A DNA stretch of 64,000 nucleotides from Candidatus Nomurabacteria bacterium (GTDB taxonomy: Bacteria; Patescibacteriota; Minisyncoccia; Phycocordibacterales; JACOZG01), in assembly GCA_020847275.1 (NCBI GenBank), contig JADLCI010000007.1, positions 108,272 through 172,271 of the forward strand, written 5' to 3'. This document shows positions 4,775 through 62,819 of this stretch, piece by piece. The position numbers and the translations under genes are program-made. The notes below the pieces were generated by a model. That model had not been told where the DNA came from. It made no database searches and saw only the letters and a list, made by a program, of their open reading frames with translations. Within the stretch, counting starts at the first letter, position 1. Each line of letters opens with the position of its first letter.

Positions 4775-4788
4775 ATCAACATAAAAAT

Positions 4789-5169: not shown

Positions 5170-5174
5170 AAACT

Positions 5175-9439: not shown

Positions 9440-9458
9440 TTGTCCACAGAGGCGTCTT

Positions 9459-9546: not shown

Positions 9547-9582
9547 TAGAAAAGTCGAAAGATTATTAAAAGTTAATCATAT

Positions 9583-12755: not shown

Positions 12756-13309
12756 AAAAATCTGGCTTCACTCTGGTCGAGATAATGGTTGCCGTTTCCA
12801 TTTTTACCGTTGTGGCGGTGATTGCGACTGGCGCGGTGATAACCGCCAATAATATAAACAAGAGGTCCCAGGCAATTAAGCTGGTGGTGGATAACCTCAA
12901 CTTCGCTCTCGATAGTCTGACGCTCAAGTTGAAGCAGGGCGGGGGTTACTACTGCGATAGTGATGCCACCAATGTCTATCCGGTTGGAGCTGATTCCCGT
13001 AATTGTTCTGGGGAGTCAAGGCTTGCCTTTAGGGTTGAAGATGGTGCCGGTAGCTACGACTATTACATCTATCTTTTCTCTGGAAATAAACTTCAATTTT
13101 CGAAGGGTGTTGGATCAAGCGCGTCAATGTCGCCGCTTGTCCCGATTACGGCCGATGACGTGAACATTAATTCCGGTCGATTTTATGTTTTTGACAACGG
13201 CTTACCCGATAAACAACCCCGCGCGCTAATTAGTGTTTATGGTACTGCCACAGCGGGGAAGCAATCCAGTAGTTTCGCCGTTGAGACAACCGTTTCAGAT
13301 CGACGTTAG
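12746..13309 (+). CDS. Minor pilin (PilW/PulJ-like); start at MSIKKSG|FTLVE
   Basis: Prepilin motif at an internal ATG. The upstream part of the track ORF overlaps the previous gene. Confidence 0.65.
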   Translation: MSIKKSGFTLVEIMVAVSIFTVVAVIATGAVITANNINKRSQAIKLVVDNLNFALDSLTLKLKQGGGYYCDSDATNVYPVGADSRNCSGESRLAFRVEDGAGSYDYYIYLFSGNKLQFSKGVGSSASMSPLVPITADDVNINSGRFYVFDNGLPDKQPRALISVYGTATAGKQSSSFAVETTVSDRR

Positions 13310-13312
13310 AAT

Positions 13313-13891
13313 ATGAAAAAAATAAAGAAAAATTTGTCCACCGGTCTCACTTTGATTGAAACATTAGTTGCCATCACTATTCTTGTCGTTGGGGTGTTGG
13401 GTCCGCTAAATATTGCCTCCCGCGGAATCGGTGACGGTATCTTCGCGGCCAACCAATTAGCGGCGAACTATCTTGCCCAAGAAGCATTGGAAGTGATAAT
13501 CAACAAGCGCTATGCCACTATTCGTAAGGCGCAATACACCACGATTCCCGACTGGACTATTGATGCTGGTTTAAGCACTTGTATGTCATCTGGTAACCAC
13601 TGCGGTGTTAATTCTCTTACCGCTGCTCTTACGGCGGATTGTGGTAGTCTCACGGGGCCATCGAATAATTCCTGTGCACTGGTTTTCAATATCACTAATG
13701 GGATATATCAATCGCCCACAACTTTGCCGGTTGAGAATCGTGGCACCGTATTCAATCGCTCGGTGAAGATTTCGGCAGTTGACGCGGCGAGCCCCCCCAA
13801 CGAAATCAAGGTTACGGTGACGGTAAAATGGAACAATAAGAATGTTCCTAGAACGCTAACGATTGTCGAACACCTATTCAGTAAAGGATAA
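13313..13891 (+). CDS. Minor pilin (PilV-like)
   Basis: MKKIKKNLSTG|LTLIETLVAIT prepilin-type leader. Confidence 0.6.
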   Translation: MKKIKKNLSTGLTLIETLVAITILVVGVLGPLNIASRGIGDGIFAANQLAANYLAQEALEVIINKRYATIRKAQYTTIPDWTIDAGLSTCMSSGNHCGVNSLTAALTADCGSLTGPSNNSCALVFNITNGIYQSPTTLPVENRGTVFNRSVKISAVDAASPPNEIKVTVTVKWNNKNVPRTLTIVEHLFSKG

Positions 13892-32562: not shown

Positions 32563-33165
32563 ATGGCAACAACATTGGTATCAGAAATGTCGCTCGAGGA
32601 GATGTGTAGACAGTTGCTTTCTGTGGCGGTTCGTGATGGCTTGGTGAGCACCAGAGACGGAGTGGTGCCGACAGATCTCTCGTGTGGTGACTTGGTCGGC
32701 ATGGCCAACTACCTTTCCGTGCTGTTCACCGCGAACCTCACTGTCCGCAAGGTCAAAGTGAACCGCAACCGCTCTCCGCAAGAGGCGATCGAAGCCACTG
32801 GCCGCACGCAATACACGGACCGCCAGGTCGTGAATGCGATGCCGAAAGGTGAAGGCGATGAAGCCGAGATCGTGTTCTTCAAACCTGACCTCTCGGAGCG
32901 CAACAGTTTCATCTCCGATGACGACCTAGAAAAAGAGTTCGAGCTGCGTGGCCTCAAGCCCGCTGACCCAGTCTCTGTCGCCGCCGTGAATGAAGCCGAC
33001 CCTGCCTTTGCTGACCAGGTGCCTCACGGCACTCACTGGAAAGATGACAAGGGCAACTGGTGTCACGTCACGTTCCACCTTTGGTTCGACGAGCGCGAGG
33101 TGTGCGTCGGCCGCGGATACGGCGGCTGGCACGATGATGCGTATTTCGCCGGTGTTCGCAAGTAG
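32563..33165 (+). CDS. Hypothetical protein (200 aa), compositionally foreign at about 57% GC
   Basis: Codons are strongly G/C-ending, unlike the neighbours. Tail rich in His/Trp/Cys (HGTHWKDDKGNWCHVTFHLWFDEREVCVGRGYGGWHDD). An AAAGGA SD precedes the start. Confidence 0.5.
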   Translation: MATTLVSEMSLEEMCRQLLSVAVRDGLVSTRDGVVPTDLSCGDLVGMANYLSVLFTANLTVRKVKVNRNRSPQEAIEATGRTQYTDRQVVNAMPKGEGDEAEIVFFKPDLSERNSFISDDDLEKEFELRGLKPADPVSVAAVNEADPAFADQVPHGTHWKDDKGNWCHVTFHLWFDEREVCVGRGYGGWHDDAYFAGVRK

Positions 33166-44437: not shown

Positions 44438-44522
44438 GGAGGGTTCGCATAGCGGTCTAGTGCGCACGCTTGGAAAGCGTGTGTGGGGCAACCCACCGAG
44501 AGTTCGAATCTCTCACCCTCCG
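44438..44522 (+). tRNA. tRNA-Ser (GGA), type II with a long variable arm
   Basis: Acceptor GGAGGGT/ACCCTCC + G. Anticodon stem CACGC/GCGTG with loop TTGGAAA. Long variable arm. T-arm GAGAG-TTCGAAT-CTCTC. Confidence 0.75.
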
Positions 44523-44649
44523 CCCACAGTATTTAGTATCGGCAGACGCGAGTGCCCGCAATATAGTTAGATACTTACCTGGGTTGACATTTGCGATACA
44601 AACTCTAGGATTAGCTCCGGCTGCACTTTTACAGAAAGGAGTGAAAATC

Positions 44650-45753
44650 ATGTCTAGGCCCGTGGTAGTAACATTGCCAATTACACCCCGCCATACTCCC
44701 GGACTCGGCCTGATGCTGATACCGCTGGTAATGGACATTATCAGACAGCAGATGGACGGCACCGGCGTGTTGGCCCTAAACGTCAATGGCTCAAAACTTG
44801 GAAGCGTTAATGTTGAGCCACACGTACTCGGATATCTCAAGGTCTGCCAGCAGGTTGGTATCGTACCGAACGTTGTTTGGCGCGACGATCAGCAGGAAAA
44901 CGTTTATTGGATCAACCAATTCTTCAAGCAACTTACCGACGCCGGACTAATCTTCCGGGCCAAAAGGGCAGTTAAGCGCTGTCCCTGCCGGATTGTAGAG
45001 ACTCTAGCCAATGCCGAGAATTTTTCGGATGCCAGAAAGTTGTATCACTGGACTGGCAATGTTTGCTTGTGCAAAATTTGCCAATTGCCAGTGTATGAGG
45101 AAAGTGATGATGTCTACCTTTTTAGGCTACCAAAGCCAAAGAAGGGGTTTGTCGTTACACCCGAATTTACTCAAGGGGAAATTGCAAATCTGGCCAGTAG
45201 ATTTACTGGAGCAGAGTTGCTGATCTCTCGAACACGTCAATCGGCCATACCTTTATGGGTTGGTCGGGAGCGAATTTTCCTTGACCCCGACTTTACCTGG
45301 CAGCTATATCTCCCGATTCTGTGGCATTGTGGTCATCGTCCAACGGTCATGATCGGTAGCCAGAAGAATCTCTTTGGTTGCTATTTGGCCATGCTTCTGT
45401 TGGAAATCTTGGTTGGTGATCAAGTAAACTTGGTCATACCAGCTTACTGCCAGACCAAAAGTCCGGCGGATGCCACAATCATGGGACGCTTCCTTGAGTG
45501 GAACAGATCAACTGTTCGTTTGTTTCTGGCCGCTCACGTGGCCTACCATGTCAAGGATACTCGTTTTGATGTTTCGCTCTTGCGGAATATCCAGAACCTT
45601 AGTCTCATCCTTGGTGGCCAAGTAGCTACGTCATCGGGAGCTCGATCGCTCGAACAAAGCCTGTCTCGGTCAAGCGCTCGGCAATTGCGTCAGCGTCTGC
45701 TCGAGGCTCGGCGATCAGGTGTAATTGATTCACTAATCTTGGAACTTTCGTAA
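44650..45753 (+). CDS. Degenerate class-I aminoacyl-tRNA-synthetase-like protein (MetRS-like catalytic core, 367 aa) lacking an intact HIGH/KMSKS and an anticodon-binding domain
   Basis: PITPRHTPGLGLMLIPLVMDIIRQQMDGTGV aligns to the aaRS P-x-x-x-G-x-x-H-x-G-H...D.I.RY..M.G region, with HLGH replaced by GLGL. CPC...CLCKIC Zn knuckle as in the MetRS CP domain. KMSKS position reads QTKSP. AAAGGAG SD before the ATG. GC-elevated. Confidence 0.5.
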   Translation: MSRPVVVTLPITPRHTPGLGLMLIPLVMDIIRQQMDGTGVLALNVNGSKLGSVNVEPHVLGYLKVCQQVGIVPNVVWRDDQQENVYWINQFFKQLTDAGLIFRAKRAVKRCPCRIVETLANAENFSDARKLYHWTGNVCLCKICQLPVYEESDDVYLFRLPKPKKGFVVTPEFTQGEIANLASRFTGAELLISRTRQSAIPLWVGRERIFLDPDFTWQLYLPILWHCGHRPTVMIGSQKNLFGCYLAMLLLEILVGDQVNLVIPAYCQTKSPADATIMGRFLEWNRSTVRLFLAAHVAYHVKDTRFDVSLLRNIQNLSLILGGQVATSSGARSLEQSLSRSSARQLRQRLLEARRSGVIDSLILELS

Positions 45754-47282: not shown

Positions 47283-48599
47283 TTATTCAATAGTCACCAC
47301 CTTTTTGGTTAACTTAATCCGCGATTTGAAGCAGCTCATAAGTTCTCGTTTCTCCTCGTTAGTGCCATCTTTGAGAATGTACTTGGCATAGGTTTTGAGA
47401 TCAATTTCCTCATGCTTGGCTTCGGGATCACGTACGCCCAGCACGCCAGACTGAAATCGGTTATGCCGTTTCAGCTCTTTCTCAAACTTTATCTGCACCC
47501 CAGTCTGATTCAGGTCGATCTGGTCAAGTGTTTTGGTTAACTGTTCGGTTAGCTCCTCCTCCCGCAAGTATGGATTCTTGCAACTTCGGTCTTTGGAGCG
47601 ACCGCAGCCATAGTAAATATACTTAGCCGTCGTGCCATCCTTGAGTAGCTTGTATTTCTCCTCGGCCGAAATGCCCGAGCCACACAGGCCACAAATCATG
47701 AGTTTGGTGAAGGCGAATTCGTGACTCTGGCGGACGATATTGTCCCGCTTTAACTGCTCCTGCGTCTTGTCGAATAGTTCTTTCGTGACTATCGGCTCAT
47801 GTTTGCCCCGATACCAGTTGCCGCTTCTTTTTGGATATTCAAAGGTGCCATAGTAAAAAGGGTTTTGGAGGATTCGAAATATATTACCAAGTGCTAAGTT
47901 GTGGTTACCGACTGTCTTGAAGTTGAGCTCAAATTTGAGCCAGTGGTGAATCTTCCGCCCGCTCCACTTCTCGTAGGCCATTTTCTCAAAGATTTTCTTG
48001 ATAATGGGAGCTCTCGTGGCATCCACTATTACCTGACACTTTTTATCCATCAGTTTCTGGTTCAGATAACCGGCGGGAGCCACTCCTGGCCATAACCCCA
48101 TCTCCACTCGCGTTCTCAAACCACGCTTCACATTGATGCCTCGATTGTCATTCTCCAACTTAGCCTGCGATCCCAGAATCATTAGCAAGAACTTCTCATT
48201 TGGATTGTTACTAAAACGCTGGCCAAAGGTACGGATTTCCATGAGTTTACCGGAGTCCATTAAGTCCACGATCTTGCCGAGGTCACCAGCGTTTCTTGAT
48301 ATCCGATCTGGCGCCCAGGTGAGAATGCCATTAAACTTACCCTCTTTTATCTCTTCAACAATTTCATTGAAGACTGGTCGCTGACCAGTCTCTTTGGCTG
48401 AGTGCGATTCTCGCTTCATGGTGACGACCTCCAGATTCTCTTTCTCGGCCAGCTGGAGCATCTCCTTGATTTGGCTATCAATGCTCAAGATTTGGCGTTC
48501 TTCGGACTCTGAACTTTTACGGGCATAAAGGCAGTATTTTACCCTTACAGGGATTGCTACTTTGGCCGCTACCCCTAACGGCGATATGGCTATGGTCAT
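47283..48599 (-). mobile_element. Large serine recombinase (resolvase domain + recombinase domain + Zn-ribbon), phage-integrase type
   Basis: Catalytic Ser context YARKSSESEERQILSIDSQ. Recombinase-domain and CxxC...CxxC zinc-ribbon segments. 438 aa. Confidence 0.8.
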
Positions 48600-48708
48600 A
48601 CCCTAAGGAATGACGCAACCGCCCGAAGGAGTCCAGAGCGTCCCGAGTAGGTAACCTGTTGGTAACTAAATTGCCCTTATTTTGCAACGCAAGCTAGGAT
48701 ATTGACCT

Positions 48709-50454
48709 ATGAAGACCTATGAACACTTGACTTGTTATTTACGTTCTGATAGGATGGCCCGTATCAGCATGCGCAAGGATATCCAAGCAAAACTTAAAGA
48801 AATGCCAGAGTTACTTTCCATCAGCCAGGTGGCAGAAATTTTCTCTATCCACCAGGACACCCTCCGCAACTGGGAGAAAGAAGGCATCCTGGTACCGCTC
48901 CGAGCTGGTAAGCGCGGGGACCGCAAATACCGCCCGCAAGACATCCAGACAATTGTCGACAAGATGGGTAGCAAGCTCACCCTCCCGCAACTCGAGCAGT
49001 TTCTCTGGAAGAGCGCCGACATCCTTCGGGGCAAAATCGACAGCTCTGACTACAAAAAATATATCTTCGGCCTCCTCTTTTACAAACGTATCAGCGACGT
49101 CTGGGACGAGGAATACGCGAAGGTGATGGATGAGTTCAAAGACGAGACGATTGCTCGTGCCGATTATAATCACCGCTTTCAGGTGCCGAAGGAGTGTCGC
49201 TGGTCGGTCGTGGAGGAGCGGGCAGAAAATATCGGCAAGAAGCTCAACGAGATTTTTGAGAAGCTTGCCAACGCGAACAGCCCGAAGCTCGACAGGATTT
49301 TTGAGGACCTCGATTTCGCCAACAAGGATCGTTTCCCGAATGAGACGACCCAGCGACTCATCAACCACTTTTCCCAATACAATTTTGGCGACACTTATAT
49401 AAACTCTGACCTCTTGGGCGACGCATACGAGTATCTCATCAAACAGTTCGCGGCGGACGCCGGCAAAAAAGGCGGCGAGTTCTACACCCCGCGCGAAGTC
49501 GAGCGTGTCATCATCGAGATCCTCAAACCCCACAAGAAAGACCACATCTACGATCCAACTGTCGGCTCTGGCGGCTTCCTTCTCGAGGCTTTCCATTACC
49601 TCAAAGAAAAAGAGAACGAGCAGGTGGCACGCACTCTCTATCTCTACGGTCAGGAAATAAACATCGGCACCTTTGCAATCGCTAAAATCAACATGTTCCT
49701 CCACGGTCTTGATAGCGCCGATATCCAGCGTGGGGATACGTTAGCCAATCCGCAGTTCCTTAATCCGAACGGCTCTCTCAAAACATTCGACATCTGCGTA
49801 GCCAATCCGCCCTACTCAATCAACGACTGGGAATACGAGATGTTCAAATCCGACAAATACGGTCGGATAGACGGGTACGAACTACCGCCAAATAAAAATG
49901 CGGACTACGCCTTCGTCCTCCACATTATAAAGTCCATGAACTCAAATGGTCGCGCGGGCATCGTACTCCCGCACGGTGTGCTCTTCCGTGGCGGTTCCGA
50001 GGGGCGCATCCGCGAACAGATACTCAAGAACGACCTTATAGAAGCCGTCATCGCGCTCCCGCCGAAGCTCTTTTATGGCACGGGCATCCCTGCGGCCATC
50101 CTCATTTTCAACAAGAACAAGCCGAAGGAACGTCAGGGCAGAGTGCTTATTATTGATGCCGAAAAGGATTTTTCCGAAGGCAAGAACCAAAACTCACTCC
50201 GCTTTCAAGACATACAGAAAATTGTTAAGGCCCACGCTGGGTACAAGGATGTAGAAGGATACGCTCGCGTCGTCGGCTTCAAAGAGATTGAGGAGAACGA
50301 ATTCAACCTCAACGTGCGGCGCTACATCGAGAACGGCGACAAGGAGGAAGAGGTAGATGTGTCAGTGGTCCGAAAGGAGCTCGCCGTTCTCGAGAAGGAA
50401 CGTGAGGAGATAGGTAAAAGGGTTGAAAAGTATTTAACAGAGTTGAAGTATTAA
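48709..50454 (+). CDS. hsdM: Type I R-M methyltransferase subunit HsdM with an N-terminal MerR/excisionase-type HTH extension
   Basis: Motif I DPTVGSGGFL and motif IV NPPY (VANPPYSINDW). The canonical HsdM N-terminus (LEQFLWKSADILRGKID) begins at about residue 85. Residues ~20-80 form the HTH (LLSISQVAEIFSIHQDTLRNWEKEGILVPLR). Confidence 0.85.
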   Translation: MKTYEHLTCYLRSDRMARISMRKDIQAKLKEMPELLSISQVAEIFSIHQDTLRNWEKEGILVPLRAGKRGDRKYRPQDIQTIVDKMGSKLTLPQLEQFLWKSADILRGKIDSSDYKKYIFGLLFYKRISDVWDEEYAKVMDEFKDETIARADYNHRFQVPKECRWSVVEERAENIGKKLNEIFEKLANANSPKLDRIFEDLDFANKDRFPNETTQRLINHFSQYNFGDTYINSDLLGDAYEYLIKQFAADAGKKGGEFYTPREVERVIIEILKPHKKDHIYDPTVGSGGFLLEAFHYLKEKENEQVARTLYLYGQEINIGTFAIAKINMFLHGLDSADIQRGDTLANPQFLNPNGSLKTFDICVANPPYSINDWEYEMFKSDKYGRIDGYELPPNKNADYAFVLHIIKSMNSNGRAGIVLPHGVLFRGGSEGRIREQILKNDLIEAVIALPPKLFYGTGIPAAILIFNKNKPKERQGRVLIIDAEKDFSEGKNQNSLRFQDIQKIVKAHAGYKDVEGYARVVGFKEIEENEFNLNVRRYIENGDKEEEVDVSVVRKELAVLEKEREEIGKRVEKYLTELKY

Positions 50455-50457
50455 CAT

Positions 50458-51264
50458 ATGACAAACATGGACATACAACAAGAAAAAGAGGAGAAGTTCG
50501 TCGACAAACACGATTTTTACTTTGAGGCACCTTTGTATGAAGCTATCGAAGTGAGCAGGTTGGAGGGTGACATATTCAGTGGTGATGTGGATGCGTACAA
50601 CACCGCAAGTGGTTTTGACACCACTTATGAAATAAAAACGGGTCATATCGGGTATCACGATAACGACTTCCGAGGTTTTTATACAGTTGTCCTAACCTGC
50701 AAAAGAAAGGGTGAAGATAAGTTGCGTTTTTTTGTTTACAGAAGTAAAGAGTTAGTTATTAAACTCGGTCAATTTCCGTCTTTGGCAGACATACAGTTCG
50801 CTGAAATCGGAAAGAAATACGACAGCGTGTTGCCGAAAGAAGATTTAAAAAATCTCAAGAAAGCTATCGGCCTCGTTGCGCACGGCGCGGGTGCCGGGTC
50901 ATTCGTATATCTTCGGCGGATTTTCGAGAATCTTATACTCGCAACATTCAAACAGAACATGGCTGCTGTCGGTGTCTCCGAAGCGGACTTCAAGACCAAT
51001 CGTATGGAAGATAAAGTGGAGGCGCTGAGGACGTTTTTGCCTAGCCAGCTCCTTGAGATGAAATCTATCTACGGAATTCTGAGCAAGGGCGTGCACGAAT
51101 TGAGCGAAGAAGAGTGCCTCAAGTACTTCTCCCCGTTGAAGCTCTCAATTGAACTCGTCCTCGATCAAAAGATAGAAGAGGCGACAAAGCGCGGACGGGA
51201 CGCGCTTGTTAAAAAGCAGCTACAGAATATTCATCAAGAGCTTTCTAACGGTGAGACTAAATAA
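50458..51264 (+). CDS. Hypothetical 268-aa protein inserted between hsdM and hsdS (possibly DUF4145-like helical domain)
   Basis: No catalytic motif recognised. C-terminal helical region AIGLVAHGAGAGSFVYLRRIFENLI. Gaps of 3 nt or less to both neighbours. Confidence 0.4.
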   Translation: MTNMDIQQEKEEKFVDKHDFYFEAPLYEAIEVSRLEGDIFSGDVDAYNTASGFDTTYEIKTGHIGYHDNDFRGFYTVVLTCKRKGEDKLRFFVYRSKELVIKLGQFPSLADIQFAEIGKKYDSVLPKEDLKNLKKAIGLVAHGAGAGSFVYLRRIFENLILATFKQNMAAVGVSEADFKTNRMEDKVEALRTFLPSQLLEMKSIYGILSKGVHELSEEECLKYFSPLKLSIELVLDQKIEEATKRGRDALVKKQLQNIHQELSNGETK

Positions 51265-51266
51265 GT

Positions 51267-52373
51267 ATGGCTACTGCGCCCCAAAAAAATATTCCCAACG
51301 GTTGGCAACAAGCAAGACTCGGGGATATTTCTGATATCACAAATGGAAAGACCAATACGCAGGATGCTGTTACTCACGGGGAATATCCTCTCTTCGATCG
51401 CTCGGTCGCAATAAAGAGGAGTAATAAATATCTTTTTGACGACACCGCCGTCATCCTCCCGGGTGAGGGAGCAGAGTTTGTGCCCCGCTACTACAGTGGC
51501 AAGTTCGATCTGCATCAGAGAGTGTATGCTATTTTCCCGAACGAGACGGTTTATCCTCTATTTTTATATCAATATTTGTACGCAAATCGTGCAGTCTTCG
51601 CACAAAATGCAGTCGGGAGTACGGTGAAGTCTCTCCGCCTCCCAATTATTCAAGCGGTCGATGTTTTACTGCCCACTCTTCCCGAACAAATGAAGATCGC
51701 GGAAATTTTATCCGCGGTCGATGCAGAAATTCAAAAGACAGACGAAATAATCACCTCTACAGAGAAACTCAAGCACGGGCTTATGAAGCAGTTTCTCTCG
51801 GCCAATAAAAGTTCTACAAAGAAGAGGTTCTCAGAATTGGCGAGTCTCAGAAAAGAAGCCTTCGATCCGAAGACAGAAGCGTCTGAAAAGTATGTTGGGT
51901 TAGAACATATTGATCAAAACTCAGGAGCATTGCTCGGATTTGGTGACTCCATTGAAACGGCAAGCATAAAAACAAGATTTTATGCCGGTGACATTTTGTT
52001 TGGGAAGTTGCGCCCCTATCTACGGAAATACTGGAAAGCAAACTTTAGTGGAGTTTGTACTACGGAGATACTCGTCTTCCAGCCTAAAGAAAAGAGAGAC
52101 GCCGAGTTTATTTTTTACCTTACTCAGTCGGATCAGTTTATAAATCATTCAAACTCGAAATCGTTTGGTACCAAAATGCCTCGAACAGATTGGAATATCG
52201 TTTCCGAGTTTGAGTTTTTCGCTCCCTCTCCAATAAAGAGACAGGAAATTGGGACCTTGCTGACTCTTATCGATCAAAGAACCTCAATCAACCGAAAAAT
52301 GAGAGGACGGTTAGTTCTCCTTAAGAAAGGTCTTATGCACGATCTTTTGAGCGGTAAGAAAAAAACAATATGA
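51267..52373 (+). CDS. hsdS: Type I R-M specificity subunit HsdS
   Basis: Two target-recognition domains separated by a conserved central helix (LPTLPEQMKIAEILSAVDAEI). C-terminal conserved helix. Confidence 0.8.
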   Translation: MATAPQKNIPNGWQQARLGDISDITNGKTNTQDAVTHGEYPLFDRSVAIKRSNKYLFDDTAVILPGEGAEFVPRYYSGKFDLHQRVYAIFPNETVYPLFLYQYLYANRAVFAQNAVGSTVKSLRLPIIQAVDVLLPTLPEQMKIAEILSAVDAEIQKTDEIITSTEKLKHGLMKQFLSANKSSTKKRFSELASLRKEAFDPKTEASEKYVGLEHIDQNSGALLGFGDSIETASIKTRFYAGDILFGKLRPYLRKYWKANFSGVCTTEILVFQPKEKRDAEFIFYLTQSDQFINHSNSKSFGTKMPRTDWNIVSEFEFFAPSPIKRQEIGTLLTLIDQRTSINRKMRGRLVLLKKGLMHDLLSGKKKTI

Positions 52374-53653
52374 CCACTGAAACGCTAAAGAATAAGACAA
52401 GGACGAAGGAGATATATCATGCGGCTAATACCGACCCCGTTTTCGATGTTAAGTCTCGTGAGGTAATGAGAGGGAAACTTTACGAGATCGTTTTTCCTTT
52501 CAATCGCCAGGGTAAGCAGAAGTACTCACTCATCTCGGAAATTCACTTCGATGGGGTGAGCCGTCTCGATCTCAAGGGTATGAGGGGTATGACGCGCGGC
52601 TATGGCTTCACGCAGGACACCGTCCCCATTGTATCGACTTTGAACGAAACTTTCCCCGGTGTCACAAAGATAATAATTTCTACTAAAACAACATCGATAA
52701 ACCTACGGAAGAGCGAGCTCGTGTTGAATGTCGACGACTATAAGACTATTTATTCCACAATCCGTCCTAAAAATCAGAAGCACTCTAAGGATCAGAAGGT
52801 TACGATCCATAATATTTTGGCACAAACAGGTGGACTAGGTCTTAAGGCAAAGAAAATTCCTTACGTTGCAGGCACAATTAAGGGAATTTTGAGAGAAGTT
52901 TCTTCCTCGGGCGGGAAGTTATCAGATGTCGACTCCGGCGCGCTACTTGATTTTGCGCAGAACAAGATTGAAAACTATGACGTCGACGCCGCTACGCTAA
53001 TCCATACGAAGGAAAAAATAGACAAGGTCTATTTTGAGAAAGTCATCGCGCGGTTTGAGAAACTGCTTGCCCTCAAAAAAGGGGTCGGCGCAAAGAAGCT
53101 GGAACAACGGTGGCACAATTTCTTCAAAGATAACTCTTGGATCTTCTCGTACTTGTTTGCCGCGCCCCATTTTCTTTTCCAGGATGAGTATTATGTTGGT
53201 GGGCAAAAAGGCACGGGCAAAGAAGCGCGATATGCCGATTTCATTTATAAAAATAAGCTGACGGGCAGCGCAACCATAATCGAAATTAAAACTCACAGAA
53301 CGAAAACGCTTCACAACACAGCCTACCGCTCTGCCGGGAAGGTATACCCGATTTCTTCAGATATCACGGGAGCAATAAATCAGGTCCTAGATCAAAAGAA
53401 TACCCTCCTCAAGAATTACTCGACCGTAGCGCAAGGCGATTTTGAGATCTTTGATCCGCGCTGCGTCATCGTTGTTGGCAACACCAAAGATATTCCGAAG
53501 GAGAGGGTAAAGAATTTCGATATGTTCCGATCGAATTTGAGGAATATAGAAATTATTTGCTTTGATGAACTTCTAGAAAAAGCGAAGCTGCTTTTGAGCC
53601 ATTTCATTAAGCCAAAGGGCTCCAAGAAGAAGAAAAATAAGAAGATAAAGTGA
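52370..53653 (+). CDS. Shedu/DUF4263-like PD-(D/E)xK nuclease with an unknown N-terminal domain, embedded between hsdS and hsdR
   Basis: C-terminal YADFIYKNKLTGSATIIEIKTHR (D...ExK), then AINQVLDQ, CVIVVGNTKD and terminal IEIICFDELLEKA, matching the DUF4263 layout. ATGA overlap with hsdS and a 1-nt gap to hsdR. Confidence 0.5.
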   Translation: MTTETLKNKTRTKEIYHAANTDPVFDVKSREVMRGKLYEIVFPFNRQGKQKYSLISEIHFDGVSRLDLKGMRGMTRGYGFTQDTVPIVSTLNETFPGVTKIIISTKTTSINLRKSELVLNVDDYKTIYSTIRPKNQKHSKDQKVTIHNILAQTGGLGLKAKKIPYVAGTIKGILREVSSSGGKLSDVDSGALLDFAQNKIENYDVDAATLIHTKEKIDKVYFEKVIARFEKLLALKKGVGAKKLEQRWHNFFKDNSWIFSYLFAAPHFLFQDEYYVGGQKGTGKEARYADFIYKNKLTGSATIIEIKTHRTKTLHNTAYRSAGKVYPISSDITGAINQVLDQKNTLLKNYSTVAQGDFEIFDPRCVIVVGNTKDIPKERVKNFDMFRSNLRNIEIICFDELLEKAKLLLSHFIKPKGSKKKKNKKIK

Positions 53654-53654
53654 T

Positions 53655-56561
53655 ATGAAATTCAACGAACAATACACGGTAGAAAATCACGTCATCAAGT
53701 TTCTCAAGGAGAGGCTCGGTTACGAATACATCAAGCCGCAAGAGTTTGCTAAGCTCCGCGAGTTTGAGAATGAGTACATCATTACCCCCCCACTGCTTGA
53801 GGCGGTCAAAAGGATCAATGGCATTGACGAAGATGGGGCGCTCTCTGTCGTTCGTGAGGTGAAGAAGATTGATAACAACGAGGCGTTTCTTGAAGCGCTT
53901 CGCTATGGCGTAAATCTCAAGGATCCGCAGACCGGCAAAATGCGGGACTATCTCATTGTTGACTTTGATAACCCTTCTAATAACCATTTTGTCGTCACAA
54001 ACCAGTTCTACTTTGAGGGCAACTCCGAGAATATCCGTCCAGACGTAATGGTGTTTTTGAATGGACTCCCGGTTGTGGACATCGAAGCAAAAAGTCCGAC
54101 AGCCGCAAGTAGTGTGGATTACTCGAAGGCCGTAGGGCAGATAAAACGCTACGAGCGCAATGCCTTTAAGCTCTTTTGGACTAACTGTTTCAACATTGCG
54201 ACCGACGGGCTCCAGACGGTGTACGGCGCGACCCATGCTCCTGCGCAGAATTTTCTGCACTGGAAGGACGAGGAACTTGAAAAGGCCGAGGGTGGCGAGC
54301 TAGAAATGACGCTGGTGGCTCTGCTTGAGAAGAATCGTCTCTTGGATGTTGTCCAGAACTTTATCGTCTTCGAGAAAGAGAAGGAGCAGACGGTTAAGAA
54401 AATAGCCCGCTACCAGCAACTTCGCGCGACGAACAAGATCGTCGAGCGAGTACTTGGTGGAGAAAAAAAGCGTGGGCTCATCTGGCACACTCAAGGGTCA
54501 GGCAAATCGCTCACGATGTACTTTACTGCCTGGAAACTGCGCTTCAATAAAGAACTCAAGAACCCTAAGGTGTTTATTCTCGTTGACCGCATCGACCTGG
54601 ACGACCAGATTTACGAAACATTTATTAATTGTGGCGGGAAGAATGTGATACGCGTCGAGTCACGCGTCGATTTGGAGCAGAAAATCCAGTCTCCCGAGCG
54701 CGGGATTTTCATCTCTACGATCCAGAAGTTCTCGGAGCTCGGTGATTCGATAAAGAGTTTTGATGAGAATGTGATTGTGCTCTCAGACGAGGCCCACCGT
54801 GATAACGAGGGTATCTCCGCTATTAATTTGCGGAGTGCCATGGGCAGTGCCTTCTTCTTTGGCTTCACCGGAACGCCCATCGACCGCGTCACTCTCAATA
54901 CACACCGCAATTTCGGGCAGGACGGCGAGCGATATTTGGATTACTACTCTATTCAGCAAGCGATTGACGACGGTGCGACGCTTCCGGTTACCTACGAGGC
55001 GCGACTCTCAAAATTCTTCATTGACGAGGAGAAGCTCGATAAGCAGTTTGAAGAGCTGACTCAAGGGCTCTCAGAAAAAGAAAAGGACGCGGTGGCTAAG
55101 AAGTACGGCAAGAAGGAAGCAATCGTGAAGCTCGACAGACGCATGGAAGCCGTCGCCCGCGATATCGTTGAGCACTACCGACTCTACGTAGAACCGGCGG
55201 GATTTAAGGCACAGATTGTCTGCTACGACCGCGAAGCGGTAGCGAAGTATAAGAAGCTCTTGGATCAGCTGGTACCCAAGGAGTGGTCGGAGGTGGTGTA
55301 TTCGCCCGGCGATCCAAACACCGACACGGAAGACCTGCGCAAGTACAACACGACCAAGGCAAAGCGAGAGAAGATTATCAACGAGTTCAAGGACCCTGCA
55401 AGTCCTCTCAAATTCCTGCTGGTCTGCGACATGCTTCTTACGGGCTTCGATGCTCCGGTTGAACAGATAATGTATCTCGACAAGCCGCTCTGGGATCACA
55501 ATCTCCTGCAAGCAATCGCTCGCACAAACCGCGTCTACCCAAACAAAGGCGCAGGAAAGGTAATTGATTACTACGGCGTCACCAAGAGTCTCTACAAAGC
55601 GCTCGATTTTGACGAGAGTGTGGTCGACTCGGCCATGATCAACATCGATAAGCTCAAGGAAGAGTTTGTTGAAGTGCTTGAGGAGATTATGAATATCTTT
55701 ACGGGCATCAATATCGAAGACCCGTCGATTGATAACCTGCGTCGCTGTCTCAAGATATTTGCTGAGAATTTGGACAAACAGAAATTTCTGCGTAGCAAGT
55801 ATGCGCGGCTCAAACTGTTGTTTGAGATACTCTCTCCCGATCCGTTCTTGAAGGAACACGTGCGCGCCTTTGAGTGGCTTACCAGCGTGTATTTGGCTTT
55901 CGATAAAGAATATGGGGCAAAGATGTCCGATGCAGAACTTCTCGCTGAATATGGTGAGAAAGTAAAACAGCTCATCCAGCAACGCGTTGACTACGAGGGT
56001 ATCACTAAGAACTTCCGCGAGCTTAACGTGAACGATCTCTATGTGATGGAACGGCTTAACAAAATGGACGATGAGGAGAAAGCTCTCAATCTTGAGAAAA
56101 TGCTCAAGCAGGAAATCTCCATCAACGTCGATACCAATCCAGCGTACAAAAAATTCAGCGAACGACTTGCCCTCATCCGCAAGGAGTTTGAACAGCACCA
56201 GATTGACCTCTCCGAGCGCATCAAGCGCTATCAGCAACTCCTCGAGGACATAAAGAAAAAAGGAGACGAGGCAAAAGAGCTTGGATACTCGCTCAAGGAG
56301 TACGGACTATATGTCATTTCTACCGAATTTATTGAGGGGGACAAGGATGTGATTCGAGAGTTCATTAAGGAGATGACGAAGCGGCTTGAGGATATACTCG
56401 ACGAAGGATGGCAGGAGTCGTCTAAGCGTGAAGAATTTCTCAAGGAGGTAAAGCGTATCGTGCAGGAACTTGTGCTCAGAGAGTATAAGGACCGCATAAA
56501 AGCCGCCGACTTCCAAAAATATCTCAATCGGCTGGTTGATATTGTGATCAAAAAATTCTAG
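53655..56561 (+). CDS. hsdR: Type I R-M restriction subunit HsdR (SF2 helicase-nuclease)
   Basis: N-terminal nuclease region. Walker A HTQGSGKSLT. DEAH box (LSDEAHRD). 968 aa. Confidence 0.85.
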   Translation: MKFNEQYTVENHVIKFLKERLGYEYIKPQEFAKLREFENEYIITPPLLEAVKRINGIDEDGALSVVREVKKIDNNEAFLEALRYGVNLKDPQTGKMRDYLIVDFDNPSNNHFVVTNQFYFEGNSENIRPDVMVFLNGLPVVDIEAKSPTAASSVDYSKAVGQIKRYERNAFKLFWTNCFNIATDGLQTVYGATHAPAQNFLHWKDEELEKAEGGELEMTLVALLEKNRLLDVVQNFIVFEKEKEQTVKKIARYQQLRATNKIVERVLGGEKKRGLIWHTQGSGKSLTMYFTAWKLRFNKELKNPKVFILVDRIDLDDQIYETFINCGGKNVIRVESRVDLEQKIQSPERGIFISTIQKFSELGDSIKSFDENVIVLSDEAHRDNEGISAINLRSAMGSAFFFGFTGTPIDRVTLNTHRNFGQDGERYLDYYSIQQAIDDGATLPVTYEARLSKFFIDEEKLDKQFEELTQGLSEKEKDAVAKKYGKKEAIVKLDRRMEAVARDIVEHYRLYVEPAGFKAQIVCYDREAVAKYKKLLDQLVPKEWSEVVYSPGDPNTDTEDLRKYNTTKAKREKIINEFKDPASPLKFLLVCDMLLTGFDAPVEQIMYLDKPLWDHNLLQAIARTNRVYPNKGAGKVIDYYGVTKSLYKALDFDESVVDSAMINIDKLKEEFVEVLEEIMNIFTGINIEDPSIDNLRRCLKIFAENLDKQKFLRSKYARLKLLFEILSPDPFLKEHVRAFEWLTSVYLAFDKEYGAKMSDAELLAEYGEKVKQLIQQRVDYEGITKNFRELNVNDLYVMERLNKMDDEEKALNLEKMLKQEISINVDTNPAYKKFSERLALIRKEFEQHQIDLSERIKRYQQLLEDIKKKGDEAKELGYSLKEYGLYVISTEFIEGDKDVIREFIKEMTKRLEDILDEGWQESSKREEFLKEVKRIVQELVLREYKDRIKAADFQKYLNRLVDIVIKKF

Positions 56562-56563
56562 CC

Positions 56564-57133
56564 ATGAAAAGAGAAATCGCTCTTCAAAATAAAAAGGTCA
56601 CCTACACTCTCCGGAAGAGCAAGCGAGCTCGAAGAATGCGTCTCGCCGTGTATTGTGACGGTACAATAGTTGTTACTACGCCGTTTGATCTCAAAGAGAC
56701 GGTTGCGGAGAGGTTTATCCGAGAGAAAAGCCAATGGCTTTTCTCAAAGATAGCGTTTTTCGAGCAATTCAAGGGTCTTGCAATTACTCGTTACTCACAC
56801 GAGGACTATCTTAAAAATAAAGACCGCGCTTATGAGCTTGCGATTGAGCGAGTGCAGTATTTCAACAAAAAGCATAAGTTCATTTTTAACAAGATCAATA
56901 TAAAGAATCAGAAGACTCGCTGGGGCAGTTGCTCTAAAAAAGGAAACCTAAATTTTAACTATAAAATTGTGCTGCTTCCGCAACGGCTTGCCGACTACAT
57001 CATCGTTCACGAACTATGCCACCTCAAGGAATTTAATCATTCCAAGAAGTTTTGGAATCTAGTCGAGAAAGTAATTCCTGATTATACAAGGATTAGAGAT
57101 GATCTGAAGAGAAGTGGCGTCACTTTTTACTAA
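56564..57133 (+). CDS. YgjP-like / DUF45 M48-family metallopeptidase, often linked to type I R-M
   Basis: HExxH (IIVHELCHLKE) in the WGSCSKKGNLNFNYKIVLLPQ context. Confidence 0.7.
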   Translation: MKREIALQNKKVTYTLRKSKRARRMRLAVYCDGTIVVTTPFDLKETVAERFIREKSQWLFSKIAFFEQFKGLAITRYSHEDYLKNKDRAYELAIERVQYFNKKHKFIFNKINIKNQKTRWGSCSKKGNLNFNYKIVLLPQRLADYIIVHELCHLKEFNHSKKFWNLVEKVIPDYTRIRDDLKRSGVTFY

Positions 57134-57134
57134 C

Positions 57135-57665
57135 ATGATTCATAAAATCAGAAATTTTATCCAAAGTTTAGAGAAGAGGCAGATTATCGCTTATATCGTC
57201 TTTTTGCTACTCGCCACAATCGTGTTCGTTGGAATGACCTTCTTTAAGGAGACGTTTCAAAAGATTGGATACACGTTACTTCTCATTGAACTCATTCTTC
57301 TAGTGACCGTTGCTTGGGCATTGGCCGGGCATGCGGTAATGAAATCACTCTTTGTTGTCGGCGCTAGTTTATCGCTGATCATTTTTCTCTCGCAAGCATA
57401 CTGCGGAGCCCCCAATCTTTCTCAGGCAGGTAACGATGCGCTCAAGACACTTATTGCTTTTGGTTTTATATACATCGCCACAAATTTTCTCCGAGCACTA
57501 TACAAAGAAGTCACTGATAGGACCAAGGTCCTGAGGCAAGTAAATGGCGGGAAGAGCCCGTGGTTCTTTCTTGTGCCATTTGCGTTGTTTGTCGGCTTGT
57601 TTGTATGGCAGATCGTTCAGATCATTATGCCAATTTTACAAAACCTCTGTATTTACCAAATTTGA
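57135..57665 (+). CDS. Hypothetical polytopic membrane protein
   Basis: Four or five TM helices. Starts 1 nt after the ygjP-like stop. Confidence 0.4.
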   Translation: MIHKIRNFIQSLEKRQIIAYIVFLLLATIVFVGMTFFKETFQKIGYTLLLIELILLVTVAWALAGHAVMKSLFVVGASLSLIIFLSQAYCGAPNLSQAGNDALKTLIAFGFIYIATNFLRALYKEVTDRTKVLRQVNGGKSPWFFLVPFALFVGLFVWQIVQIIMPILQNLCIYQI

Positions 57666-57769
57666 ACCTGTTGGTAACTAACGCTTCGCAATATCTCCTG
57701 ATTAAGCTAGGATGCTTCACGATAGCCAAATGTGCTATCATGCTCCTGACAATTGAATAAGCAAAAGTA

Positions 57770-59613: not shown

Positions 59614-61086
59614 CTAGCCAATCCACGCCGACCCGCCATTGCTGTCGACAAAATCAAGCCAAGCGTTGAATGACCTTTGATTCTCGCTCGTTTCGATAGA
59701 CCCCATGACCGCCATCGCAAAAGCGTCCGCAAGATCATCGTGGTGTTCGACCCCGAACCCAGTTAGTTGGGTAATGAGCGCCTCTGCCCCGCGAGCGGGA
59801 AATTGAATCATTCCGCTTTGGACGTATTGGGAGGTGAGAGCCAGTCTGGTGCGCTTGTCAGTCGTATTCTTGACTGACTCGACCTCAATCCCTTCTATGT
59901 CTAACTGGTCGGCATAAATCTGCTGGAAACCATTGGATTCGACTACCACAGTCGGCGCTACCTCATAGTTAAGGTTTTTTACAACGGCCTTGATTGTCTG
60001 AATCGTTTCCGGATAGGTCATCCGGCGATTCACGACATTGGGCAGAACAAAGAGTTTGAGTTCTCCTTTGTGGCTATAAAGAATAAGGGTAACAATGGCT
60101 GTATAATCGGCGGTTTCTTTCTGTGAAATGGCAAGATCAACACCGACATAGACTCCAACCACTCGCTCTTTCGCTCCTTTCGGCAGCTCAGCGTAATACT
60201 GAATCCATTCGGGGAAAATCACCCGGCTGGAGTCGGAGACGATTCTCAGGAGATATTCCTGTTGCCAAGCGAATTCGTTGGCAACACCCCGCCTGAGGGT
60301 GTCGATTTTTTCTGGCGCATCGAATTTCTCCGGCCAGAGACAGCGGCCTTCTTCATCAAGCAGAGGAAACCAGCGATAGACACCTTTTATGTCCCCGGTA
60401 TCCATCTTCTGCTTCAGGCGCATCATCAGAGAATCTTCATGGAGCAAATTGCCCACTAGAACGACTCGCGTCCCGATATCGCCGAGCGGGATGACCTCGC
60501 GAGTGAACCAATCGAAAACCTTGTTTCGCCCCTCAATGGTTTTGGTGGAATTTAAGTCTTCGACATCATCCAGAATCAGCAGATCGGGACGATGTTCATG
60601 GTGCCGAATGCCACGGATGCTTTGCTCGGCTGAAGCAATCATGATGCGAGCGCCGGTGTTCTGGAAAACCAAAGACGAAATTGCCCAGTCGCCGCCGCCC
60701 GTTTCCTCCCGAAATGGGCCTAAGTCGCTTTTTAACAGCCGGTTATTTTCTAGCTCGAATTTCAGGTTAAGCATCTGTTGGCGAGCCTGAGCCTGAGTGC
60801 GGCAGATAATGAGCACGAATTTCTTCTGCTGTTCGCCCAGAATCGACCATAGGGAATACGACAGAGTAATTAGGGTTGATTTGCCCGAGCCTCGGAAGGC
60901 GACGATACAGGTCAGATTGTTGGAACGGTCTTCGGTCAGTCGGAAAATATCTTTCTGAAATTCGGCAGTCGGATATTTCACATAGTGGGGCAGATAGATG
61001 TGGAAGAACATCAGATGGCTTTGCTTTGCGACCTGTTGTCTGACTAGCCGGTCCCGCGCCAGCGACTCAAAGAGATTAGCTTCCAT
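59614..61086 (-). CDS. Phage terminase large subunit
   Basis: Walker A FRGSGKSTL. Walker B LLILDDVED. C-terminal RNaseH-like nuclease (VGVDLAISQ...D). 490 aa. Confidence 0.75.
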   Translation of the reverse strand: MEANLFESLARDRLVRQQVAKQSHLMFFHIYLPHYVKYPTAEFQKDIFRLTEDRSNNLTCIVAFRGSGKSTLITLSYSLWSILGEQQKKFVLIICRTQAQARQQMLNLKFELENNRLLKSDLGPFREETGGGDWAISSLVFQNTGARIMIASAEQSIRGIRHHEHRPDLLILDDVEDLNSTKTIEGRNKVFDWFTREVIPLGDIGTRVVLVGNLLHEDSLMMRLKQKMDTGDIKGVYRWFPLLDEEGRCLWPEKFDAPEKIDTLRRGVANEFAWQQEYLLRIVSDSSRVIFPEWIQYYAELPKGAKERVVGVYVGVDLAISQKETADYTAIVTLILYSHKGELKLFVLPNVVNRRMTYPETIQTIKAVVKNLNYEVAPTVVVESNGFQQIYADQLDIEGIEVESVKNTTDKRTRLALTSQYVQSGMIQFPARGAEALITQLTGFGVEHHDDLADAFAMAVMGSIETSENQRSFNAWLDFVDSNGGSAWIG

Positions 61087-61468
61087 TTTTTTCTAGGTTA
61101 ATTCTGGCTAGGGCCAACGCTCGGCGAATCAATTCTTTTTGTGGTGAGGACAGTTCCTCGATTACCTCCAGTTTACCGGCCAATTCGAGGCGCGTGCGGT
61201 AGCTGGGATGGTGGTTCTTTAGCCACATATTCACCGCCCGCAGGTCACGATTCTTGATTGCCGCAATCAACTGGCCCTCGGCCATATCGTTCATCAGCAA
61301 CACGCCATCAGTCATGGCCCGATCGACCTCAGCAGAAAATTCAGGATCATCTTTTTTCCACTGATAGAAGCTGGTCCGTCCGACCCCAGTTTGTTTACAG
61401 GCAATCTCCACGATTGGTGTCTTGCGTAATTGTTCAAGCACGGCACTTTTTAGTTTATGCCTTTTCAT
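61076..61468 (-). CDS. HTH protein, terminase small subunit-like
   Basis: N-terminal HTH (PIVEIACKQTGVGRTSFYQWKK). Overlaps the large terminase gene by 11 nt. Confidence 0.5.
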   Translation of the reverse strand: MKRHKLKSAVLEQLRKTPIVEIACKQTGVGRTSFYQWKKDDPEFSAEVDRAMTDGVLLMNDMAEGQLIAAIKNRDLRAVNMWLKNHHPSYRTRLELAGKLEVIEELSSPQKELIRRALALARINLEKNGS

Positions 61469-62819
61469 GGATCAGTTTCGGCTTGAGCCCAGTTAGTTTC
61501 GACCAACGGTGCAGAATGACTTCAGCATAGACCGGTGATTTTTCCATTAGGTAACAGCGCCGCTTCATTTTGGCGGCCGCGATTAGAGTGGAGCCACTGC
61601 CGCCAAACGGCTCCAAGATAAGATCGTCGCGCCTGGTCAGCACCTTGATATACGGAATGAGAATTTCCAGGGGCTTGGTGCCGAAGATGATTCCTTGTCC
61701 GCTAGACTTTTCATCGGCGGCCTTGTAATCAATGAAGTCAGTCGGGCAGATTTTCTTGCCCTTTTCATACCCTTCCCAGTGCGGTTTACCGCTGGTGGCG
61801 AACAGAGCGTTCTCATACTCGGTCTGAAGTAGCTCGTCCGCTTCCGGTTCAGGGTTCTTTAACTTCAGGCCCGGGCTGCTACCAACTAGAGCAATATCCT
61901 GTTTATTGAAGAATTTGTATTTGGCCGCGAACCCTTGAACGCGGTTCGGCAGATGCCAAGTAATGGTGTTGCGGTATTTCCAGTGCTTCTCCAGCTCGTT
62001 CCAGATCGTCCGCAGGTTCTTGGGGTGCTCGAAGACGATAATGGAGAAGTCCGGCTTTTGGACTTTGGCGACGTTGGCCATCCAGCGCTCGGTGAAGTCC
62101 GGCGGCAGGATATCGGTTTCCAGATAGCGCCGGTTCTTCTTGGAACCGAAACCGACTGTCGGTTTGCCGTTCCTGGTCTTGCCTCGCAGATAGTCGAGAA
62201 TATATGGCGGGTCGGTGAAGCACATATCAGCTCGTTCGTTCCCCATCAGCGCTAGCATATCCGCTTCCACCGTGGAGTCACCGCAACGCAATCGGCTACC
62301 GCTCAAGTCGTAAATGTCGCCCTTCTTAACGTTGATTTTCTTGATGTCCAGTTTGGCTAGTTCTTTTTCTAGGTCAAACTGTTCCTCGTTGTCGCCGATC
62401 CCGAAGATGTCATCCAACTCTTCCGAGTCAAAGCCAATGTCAGCCAGCAGCTTCTCGTCAAATTCGGCCAGGAGCGCTAGATCAAACTCACCGGAATTTT
62501 TGTTCAAGCGCAGGTTTAATTCTTTTTCCTTTTCAAGGTCAGGGATATTGACGTAGACTACCGGCACTTCTCTGATATCCATTTGTTTGAGCACTGTGGC
62601 CCGGAAGTTGCCACCGACAATGATTCCCTGGCGACTGGGCGCGGAGTTAACCACCAGTGGGTCAACTACGCCGTAACGAGTAATGCTTTCTTTTAGCTGT
62701 TCGGTCGCTTCCTTTGACCAGCGGCGAGGGTTGATCTCGGGGTGGCGTAGGGAAGCAAGGGGAACATAGTCAATCTGGAGATTCTCTGACGGAACCTTAG
62801 ATTTAATTGTTTTATTCAT
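61455..62819 (-). CDS. ParB-like nuclease domain fused to a beta-class amino (N6-A/N4-C) DNA methyltransferase; phage-type orphan MTase
   Basis: ParB N-terminal motif (GIIVGGNFRA). Motif IV DPPY (CFTDPPYILDY) precedes motif I (LEPFGGSGST). Confidence 0.7.
   Translation of the reverse strand: MNKTIKSKVPSENLQIDYVPLASLRHPEINPRRWSKEATEQLKESITRYGVVDPLVVNSAPSRQGIIVGGNFRATVLKQMDIREVPVVYVNIPDLEKEKELNLRLNKNSGEFDLALLAEFDEKLLADIGFDSEELDDIFGIGDNEEQFDLEKELAKLDIKKINVKKGDIYDLSGSRLRCGDSTVEADMLALMGNERADMCFTDPPYILDYLRGKTRNGKPTVGFGSKKNRRYLETDILPPDFTERWMANVAKVQKPDFSIIVFEHPKNLRTIWNELEKHWKYRNTITWHLPNRVQGFAAKYKFFNKQDIALVGSSPGLKLKNPEPEADELLQTEYENALFATSGKPHWEGYEKGKKICPTDFIDYKAADEKSSGQGIIFGTKPLEILIPYIKVLTRRDDLILEPFGGSGSTLIAAAKMKRRCYLMEKSPVYAEVILHRWSKLTGLKPKLIHEKA

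Follow-up and report, generated by a model that had tools for sequence, protein, structure and literature searches.

Two junctions of a Patescibacteria type I restriction-modification operon are cargo slots, here holding a Shedu nuclease and a predicted HEPN-like protein

Why should a type I restriction-modification (R-M) operon carry an additional gene at each of two junctions between its subunits? The question is raised by a stretch of 64,000 nucleotides from a Candidatus Nomurabacteria bacterium (contig JADLCI010000007.1, of 296 kb, positions 108,272 to 172,271 of the forward strand), which we refer to as the window. The original prediction, made from the letters of this stretch, described six genes on one strand in the order hsdM-orfX-hsdS-sduA-hsdR-ygjP, where orfX encodes a protein of 268 aa and sduA one of 427 aa. 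Both the order and the shared strand hold, and the coordinates agree with the list of open reading frames (ORFs):

48709-50454, + strand: hsdM, 581 aa as the longest ORF in the list
50458-51264, + strand: orfX, 268 aa, at the hsdM/hsdS junction
51267-52373, + strand: hsdS, specificity subunit, 368 aa
52370-53653, + strand: sduA, 427 aa, at the hsdS/hsdR junction
53655-56561, + strand: hsdR, restriction/translocase subunit, 968 aa
56564-57133, + strand: gene of a YgjP-like HExxH metallopeptidase, 189 aa
57114-57665, + strand: hydrophobic ORF of 183 aa in the list, overlapping the 3' end of ygjP

From a comparison of this operon with its relatives, we hypothesize, with a probability of roughly three in four, that it is a complete R-M backbone with two exchange slots, and that the Shedu nuclease and the HEPN-like protein now occupying them act as separate layers of defence.

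The backbone itself is that of a type I system with two inserted genes, as had been claimed, and its subunits all score above curated cut-offs. HsdM matches TIGR00497 with 272.4 bits (cut-off 242.75), PF02384 with an E value of 1e-108, and also PF12161 and PF13411; it contains the motifs DPTVGSGGF at residue 282 and NPPY at residue 366. HsdS matches PF01420 in two stretches, corresponding to two target-recognition domains, and the PADLOC model Specificity_I at E 7e-60. HsdR reaches 564.5 bits with TIGR00348 (cut-off 284.55), contains HSDR_N, SWI2_SNF2 and T1R_D3-like domains, and shows D130...E144-A-K146 of a PD-(D/E)xK nuclease together with GSGKS at residue 281 and DEAH at residue 378. The YgjP-like protein matches PF01863 with 152.8 bits (cut-off 26) and has the HExxH motif, as HELCH, at residue 149; its gene stands directly behind hsdR in every related operon whose sequence reaches that far. 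Judged by these motifs, the R-M operon is complete and apparently active.

Related loci were fetched through homologues of orfX and through homologues of SduA. In these loci we observed a shared Patescibacteria backbone that consists of a divergently oriented serine recombinase gene, HTH-HsdM (HsdM with a fused helix-turn-helix, HTH), slot 1, HsdS, slot 2, HsdR and YgjP, often followed by a ParB-N6/N4 methyltransferase gene. The occupants of the slots are as follows, with all identities relative to the window:

Window: slot 1, orfX; slot 2, SduA
L004 (backbone about 70%): slot 1, orfX; slot 2, SduA (93%)
L006 (hsdM 90%, hsdR 85%): slot 1, orfX; slot 2 empty, hsdS being followed directly by hsdR
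L002 (hsdM 90%, hsdR 87%): slot 1, orfX and a PD-Lambda-3_A-like gene (6987-7427); slot 2, a SEC-C protein
L005 (hsdM 74%, hsdR 70%): slot 1, orfX; slot 2, a 448-aa protein with no family match
L010 (hsdM 75%, hsdR 69%): slot 1, a CBASS-type cyclase (8652-9953, E 1e-165) and orfX; slot 2, a 248-aa ORF of no family
L014 (hsdM 74%, hsdR 70%): slot 1, NYN, Bro-N and orfX; slot 2, a PDC-S01 ATPase (12403-13833)
L161/L162 (about 90%): slot 1, an unrelated 214-aa gene with a weak PDC-M14B match; slot 2, SduA (95%)
L163 (hsdM 85%, hsdR 81%): slot 1, an AriA/OLD-like ATPase (4687-6495) and a 128-aa gene; slot 2, SduA (81%)
L165/L166 (hsdM 79%, hsdR 72%): no slot 1, HsdM and HsdS being fused; SduA (69%)

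Operons with orfX only, with SduA only and with both inserts are thus all present among the relatives, and the identities of the inserts are decoupled from those of the backbones. By these comparisons, the hsdM/hsdS and hsdS/hsdR junctions are cargo slots that exchange unrelated defence genes, and orfX and SduA assort independently, as cargo and not as partners. Since each insert occurs on related operons without the other, the idea that the 268-aa protein is an unknown partner of the nuclease finds no support; the broader proposal of a layered defence locus is supported by both the exchange and the independent assortment. The related operons amount to a natural experiment, in which one backbone has had defence cargo swapped independently at two junctions.

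Several features of individual loci deserve mention. The 214-aa gene in slot 1 of L161 was considered as a diverged orfX and rejected (hhalign probability 0.2%). The HsdM-HsdS fusion (L165, 5723-7993; L166, 4112-6382) is a 756-aa protein with MerR HTH, HsdM_N, N6_Mtase and Methylase_S domains, and SduA lies directly 3' of it. In L010, the CBASS-type oligonucleotide cyclase has no obvious effector called beside it, and embedded genes of 260 and 248 aa have no family match. The conserved 3' part of hsdS occurs in L010 in three direct copies (12087-12117, 12702-12741 and 13491-13554), which suggests extra partial hsdS copies and perhaps specificity switching. The window hsdS shares 26-33% identity with its counterparts in most relatives, and 60% along 168 aa in L165/L166; the generally low values are expected because target-recognition domains are variable.

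From hsdM to ygjP the successive junctions are gaps of 3 and 2 nt, the ATGA overlap of hsdS and sduA, and gaps of 1 and 2 nt. This tight spacing favours the single transcription unit that had been proposed; scans of the operon for promoter and terminator consensus sequences, internal ones included, gave counts at or below the shuffled expectation, which is no help to our reading, so that the case for one transcript is made by gene spacing. Within the longest hsdM ORF there is a promoter-like TTGACT-17-TAGGAT at 48727-48755 and orthologues are called at 561 aa, and on these grounds the true start of hsdM is probably M21, at 48769. These orthologues have the same MerR, HsdM_N and N6_Mtase domains; the MerR-type HTH is fused to the N-terminus of the window HsdM (residues 35-82; window 48709-48960), is kept in L161, L163 and L165, and might be a built-in regulator of operon expression. 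At the other end of the operon, the 183-aa ORF has no family match in Pfam or NCBIfam; a 172-aa ORF behind ygjP in L161 is 36% identical to it, and the unit may end with this gene.

What, then, is the cargo in slot 2? The 427-aa protein had been called a Shedu/DUF4263-like PD-(D/E)xK nuclease, and this identification is borne out by domain models, catalytic residues and fold. PF14082 (SduA_C) matches residues 243-402 with 83.4 bits (cut-off 27, E 2.5e-23), and 17 PADLOC SduA models match, the best of them spanning residues 72-422 at E 6e-66. When 27 homologues are aligned, E245, D290, E305, K307 and Q338 do not vary, and in a fold comparison the protein is similar to solved Shedu structures. 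The motifs that had been read from the sequence are present (D290, E305-I-K307, Q338-V, VIVVGN and ICFDELLEKA), with two corrections: the spacing is D-x14-EIK rather than D-x13-EIK, and ICFDELLEKA is not terminal, as 23 further residues stand behind it. The N-terminal half had been regarded as unrecognised and as a possibly new sensor domain; the PADLOC subfamily model covers residues 72-422, however, and most of the 62 homologues found are full-length at about 420 aa, with identities down to 30%, some of them annotated as 'Shedu immune nuclease family protein'. A database protein identical to that of the window is annotated 'DUF4263 domain-containing protein'. By its sequence, sduA encodes an ordinary Shedu nuclease (SduA) with its catalytic residues intact. 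The spacing of motifs I-IV is almost equal to that of E204, D249, E264/K266 and Q295 in the B. cereus Shedu protein (PMC10441436). In overall shape, the subfamily of about 420 aa resembles E. coli SduA more closely than it does the B. cereus protein.

For a nuclease co-transcribed within an R-M operon, the literature is ahead of the locus (PMC10441436; 10.1101/2024.01.29.577857). Among the 5,499 Shedu genes that Gu et al. (2023, PMC10441436) report, 602 lie within R-M systems, types I-IV being represented; like those in type I systems, the window gene encodes a single-gene DUF4263/PF14082 nuclease with motifs I-IV, and it differs in being a further instance from a Patescibacteria genome. A Shedu gene within a type I R-M operon is thus a documented and common arrangement, to which the locus adds nothing new. 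When we counted metagenome loci of the subfamily of about 420 aa with at least 3 kb of sequence on both sides, 8 of 31 (26%) were embedded in type I R-M operons, at varying junctions, and about 70% of the subfamily has no R-M neighbour.

Embedding in general has precedents as well. Payne et al. (2024, bioRxiv 10.1101/2024.01.29.577857) surveyed BREX, DISARM and type I R-M loci, catalogued 17,432 embedded genes and derived from them 145 candidate systems, which are now in PADLOC. TgvAB inside the type I R-M locus of V. cholerae VPI-2 (PMC11411939) and PrrC (PMC12707154) are precedents from experiment. As in this 'guilt-by-embedding' survey, in TgvAB and in the Campylobacter rlo genes, the extra genes of the window are co-oriented and nested between hsd genes; the embedded genes of those precedents are independent defence systems that complement restriction, which is how we read the window inserts, and the slots of the related operons likewise hold PADLOC-listed systems and PDC candidates. 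The window differs from the surveyed cases in two respects, namely that orfX is absent from the HEC and PDC models of PADLOC v2.0.0 and that two separate junctions of one backbone are seen exchanging cargo across close relatives. These observations support the use of embedding as a filter for finding defence genes in bacteria of candidate phyla, whose defence systems are poorly charted, and the filter points at orfX.

We propose that ribosomes would translate both inserts from the R-M transcript, and that the products would form layers of their own and not belong to the R-M complex. The enzyme itself would cut unmethylated DNA. E. coli SduA recognises free DNA ends and nicks nearby (10.1101/2023.08.10.552762); by analogy, the window protein would be a tetrameric PD-(D/E)xK nuclease, restrained by its N-terminal domain, that attacks DNA with free ends such as linear phage replication intermediates. 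It would catch phages that escape restriction, and it may also finish off restriction fragments. In the weakest step of this scheme, the orfX protein would most likely be a stand-alone abortive-infection effector, probably targeting RNA, with an active divergent HEPN domain and an N-terminal domain that binds a trigger, mirroring the ring-activated zinc-finger-HEPN RNase RAZR.

A different coupling is suggested by PrrC, a HEPN-type anticodon nuclease encoded in a type IC locus, which is switched on when the R-M enzyme is inhibited (PMC12707154). By this precedent, one or both inserts would be held latent on the R-M complex, as PrrC is with EcoprrI, until a phage anti-restriction protein disables the enzyme. 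Position speaks for such a guard: of 80 genome loci, nine are type I loci with orfX, in all of which it is directly 3' of hsdM, and it also follows type III Mod elsewhere; the same slot of L163 holds an AriA-like ATPase, related to PARIS, which detects anti-restriction proteins; and the 26% of well-flanked SduA loci inside type I R-M fits a functional tie. Yet orfX and SduA are each found without the other on near-identical backbones, and Shedu proteins protect as single genes (PMC10441436; 10.1101/2023.08.10.552762). Moreover, the orfX protein lacks the ABC-ATPase domain of PrrC. Because the two genes assort independently and so many copies of both have no R-M neighbour (about 80% for orfX, in addition to the fraction given for SduA), we consider the guard model the less likely one, and indeed unlikely, and retain the reading of separate layers.

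The cargo of slot 1 is less easily classified. The window protein has no match in Pfam (even at E 10), NCBIfam or PADLOC, and the only profile that matches is phrog_25239, of unknown function (E 3.7e-11); a database protein identical to it is annotated 'hypothetical protein'. Searching with its sequence, we found 1,408 matches in a database clustered at 90% identity. At 50% identity the family comprises at least 2,370 clusters, of which 1,061 have E <= 1e-30, and the length is 250-300 aa in almost every case; its members are distributed over Patescibacteria, Bacteroidota, Bacillota, Pseudomonadota, Planctomycetota, Chloroflexota and others. On sequence grounds, the orfX protein is a member of a large uncharacterised family; the suggestion that it could be new stands to that extent, and the role of partner that came with it does not.

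Some homologues carry the name 'short-chain dehydrogenase' in GenBank/RefSeq, among them L167 4977-5774 (NZ_CP065917.1), L168 5725-6561 (NZ_CP045607.2), P0026 and P0046. This is presumably a misnomer that arose from a GxGxG loop; neither the sequence nor the structure model gives it support.

The structure model (pLDDT 85) has a beta-rich N-terminal domain at about residues 29-106 and a helical C-terminal domain at residues 109-264. The latter has four helices in the up-and-down arrangement of the HEPN fold, so that the predicted fold is HEPN-like. Invariant in the family are G143-x-G-x-G147, V150, Y151, R153, R154, E157, Y205, H213, C81 and C220, and at least 90% of members share S148 and L152. 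H213 is placed in the loop ahead of the last long helix, which is the position of the HEPN catalytic histidine. Distant homologues have an N-terminal CxxC...CxRxxxH (C3H) motif that forms a zinc ribbon; the CxxC is lost in Patescibacteria and Bacteroidota, and of these cysteines C81 alone is left in the window protein. DUF4145 is itself one of the HEPN superfamily, and HEPN proteins of the DUF4145 type occur in R-M operons and are found fused to zinc ribbons (PMC3710099).

Several results weigh against an active HEPN effector in slot 1, and we gather them here. In 30 diverse family members including the window protein there was no match to any Pfam family at E <= 1 or to any PADLOC model (HEPN, DUF4145 and PD-T7-4 being covered, and the release used including the HEC and PDC candidates). 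DUF4145 (PF13643), against which a search with the 268-aa protein had been suggested, was not matched by the window protein at E <= 10 or by the 29 diverse homologues at E <= 1. A profile built from 30 homologues gave nothing at E <= 10 against PDB sequences, and Foldseek of the model against the PDB returned nothing significant, RAZR not being among the hits. The Rx4-6H motif is absent: the sequence ahead of the histidine is ILSKGVH, with I, L and S at positions -4 to -6 and K210 at -3, and the invariant R153/R154 are on another helix. The protein is 57-69% identical across Patescibacteria lineages, which is unusually conserved for a defence gene. Finally, about 80% of the homologues are located away from any R-M system, most copies are solitary, and some stand beside the housekeeping genes groEL, lepA, gatB and rpoB.

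Taken at face value, the missing arginine, the high conservation, the lack of any match to a defence hidden Markov model (HMM) and the many copies beside housekeeping genes would suit a gene that is no defence effector at all, and which hitch-hikes in the slot as a regulator, a nucleic-acid-binding accessory or an addiction or selfish gene with an inactive HEPN-like scaffold. Its distribution in mobile genomes points the same way, as tblastn found no match in 50,697 phage records (although one PHROG matches) and the gene was found in only 5 plasmids. Against this, the slot otherwise holds recognised defence genes or candidates; the family has a fixed single-domain architecture and is scattered patchily over the phyla; the invariant His, Arg-Arg and Glu together with the Gly-rich loop suggest an active site; and HEPN families with a conserved histidine and no arginine are documented (PMC3710099). 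One 9.7-kb Pelagovum plasmid carries orfX between a rep gene and a superinfection-exclusion gene and near a BrnT/CopG toxin-antitoxin pair, which also argues for defence. We regard a role outside defence as less likely than not.

The wider neighbourhood of orfX offers no conserved partner gene: DNA methyltransferases apart, the neighbours are unrelated across 76 loci. Methyltransferases are the commonest immediate neighbours (N6_Mtase 6, N6_N4_Mtase 5, C5 methylase 2), giving 13 methylase-domain matches among the 124 immediate neighbours scanned in those loci. Outside type I operons, orfX was found after type III Mod, between a SNF2 helicase and Mod, or after a SIR2 protein, and on a B. cereus megaplasmid it lies amid phage genes.

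How, if the effector role is correct, would the protein work? Its architecture recalls RAZR/PD-T7-4 (PMC13017515; PMC9519451), likewise a small single protein, in which a conserved linker joins an N-terminal zinc ribbon to a divergent HEPN domain at the C-terminus. There are clear differences: the profiles of DUF4145 and of PADLOC PD-T7-4 match none of the 30 members; where RAZR has R146 and H154, the family has a conserved histidine and no arginine 4-8 residues before it; the window protein is without the CxxC cysteines and so has no Cys4 zinc ribbon; and it is about 45 residues longer. By analogy it may work like RAZR, but as the tests for homology with HMMs and Foldseek were negative, we do not classify it as a member. 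PrrC/RloC resembles it as a HEPN-type protein between hsd genes and is the precedent, in concept, for backing up restriction by abortive infection (PMC12707154); PrrC/RloC proteins, however, have an N-terminal ABC-ATPase and are almost exclusively embedded in R-M (10.1101/2024.01.29.577857), whereas the orfX protein has no ATPase domain and is found mostly outside R-M loci, and so falls outside that group. We can only tentatively advance the bolder proposal that orfX founds a large unannotated single-gene abortive-infection family with a zinc-ribbon-derived trigger domain and a divergent HEPN RNase domain of the His-only type, distantly related to RAZR and possibly activated by assembly on a phage protein, here carried by a two-slot R-M platform on a recombinase-linked phage-like element. 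We stress that, if true, RNase-based defence by orfX would be a new single-gene system and the second example of a zinc ribbon combined with a divergent HEPN domain.

The surroundings of the operon, including a perfect direct repeat of 17 nt, bear on how the backbone itself may move:

47283-48599, - strand: large serine recombinase with Resolvase, Recombinase and Zn_ribbon_recom domains, divergent from the operon
48653-48669: left copy of the 17-nt direct repeat AACCTGTTGGTAACTAA, in the recombinase-hsdM intergenic region
57665-57681: right copy of AACCTGTTGGTAACTAA, starting at the last stop-codon base of the 183-aa ORF
59614-61086, - strand: terminase large subunit, downstream of the operon
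61076-61468, - strand: small HTH protein, downstream
61455-62819, - strand: ParB-N6/N4 methyltransferase, downstream

The recombinase is 56-73% identical, and in the same divergent position, in L002, L004, L006, L010, L161, L163 and L165, and the ParB-methyltransferase is syntenic in L004, L006, L010 and L165/L166. As the recombinase, the terminase and the ParB-methyltransferase surround the operon and recur in part in other Patescibacteria, the arrangement suggests that a phage-like integrative element carries the R-M backbone as cargo. A role of the recombinase in phase variation of hsdS, as in a shufflon, was considered and rejected: there is a single hsdS, and no inverted repeats derived from it were found between 43 and 64 kb.

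The two copies of AACCTGTTGGTAACTAA are perfect, lie 9,012 nt apart and are the only ones in the window; none was found in the 168 fetched loci. Each copy is followed, about 21 nt behind it, by AAGCTAGGAT. The pair may reflect an att-like site or a shared operator, or have arisen by chance. At its most ambitious, the repeat would mark the 9-kb block from hsdM to the 183-aa ORF as a mobile cassette, inserted or excisable by site-specific recombination, perhaps through the adjacent serine recombinase. The repeats do stand exactly at both ends of the block, where chance would give about 0.013 such pairs per 21-kb region; the recombinase adjoins the block; and the composition of hsdM and hsdR is atypical. 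However, the recombinase is outside the bracketed segment and stays beside hsdM in all relatives, and no equivalent flanking direct repeat is present in seven related loci. Serine-recombinase att sites normally leave no perfect direct repeats of 17 bp, and a promoter or operator element present twice would account equally well for the shared AAGCTAGGAT behind both copies. We consider a cassette of this kind improbable. Separately, L161, a 13.8-kb metagenome contig with the recombinase and the whole R-M/SduA operon, has a perfect 16-nt direct repeat near both ends (48-63 and 13622-13637); this could reflect a circular or excised element, or chance.

Codon usage had been described as G/C-ending across the whole operon. 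This is correct for hsdM and hsdR, in which the G+C fraction at third codon positions (GC3) is elevated to 0.66 and 0.62 against a reference of 0.49 +/- 0.06 over 49 other window ORFs; the values for orfX (0.51), hsdS (0.45), sduA (0.53) and ygjP (0.47) are ordinary. This mosaic of GC3 counts in favour of the reading with exchange slots.

Elsewhere in the window, a tRNA-Ser(GGA) gene at 44438-44524 is overlapped by two long mechanical ORFs, 44457-44840 on the - strand and 44470-45753 on the + strand; because of this overlap, the 5' part at least of the latter, which is 427 aa in length, is unlikely to be coding. The strongest compositional outlier among the window ORFs is a 200-aa ORF on the + strand at 32563-33165, with a GC3 of 0.70 and an overall GC of 0.58.

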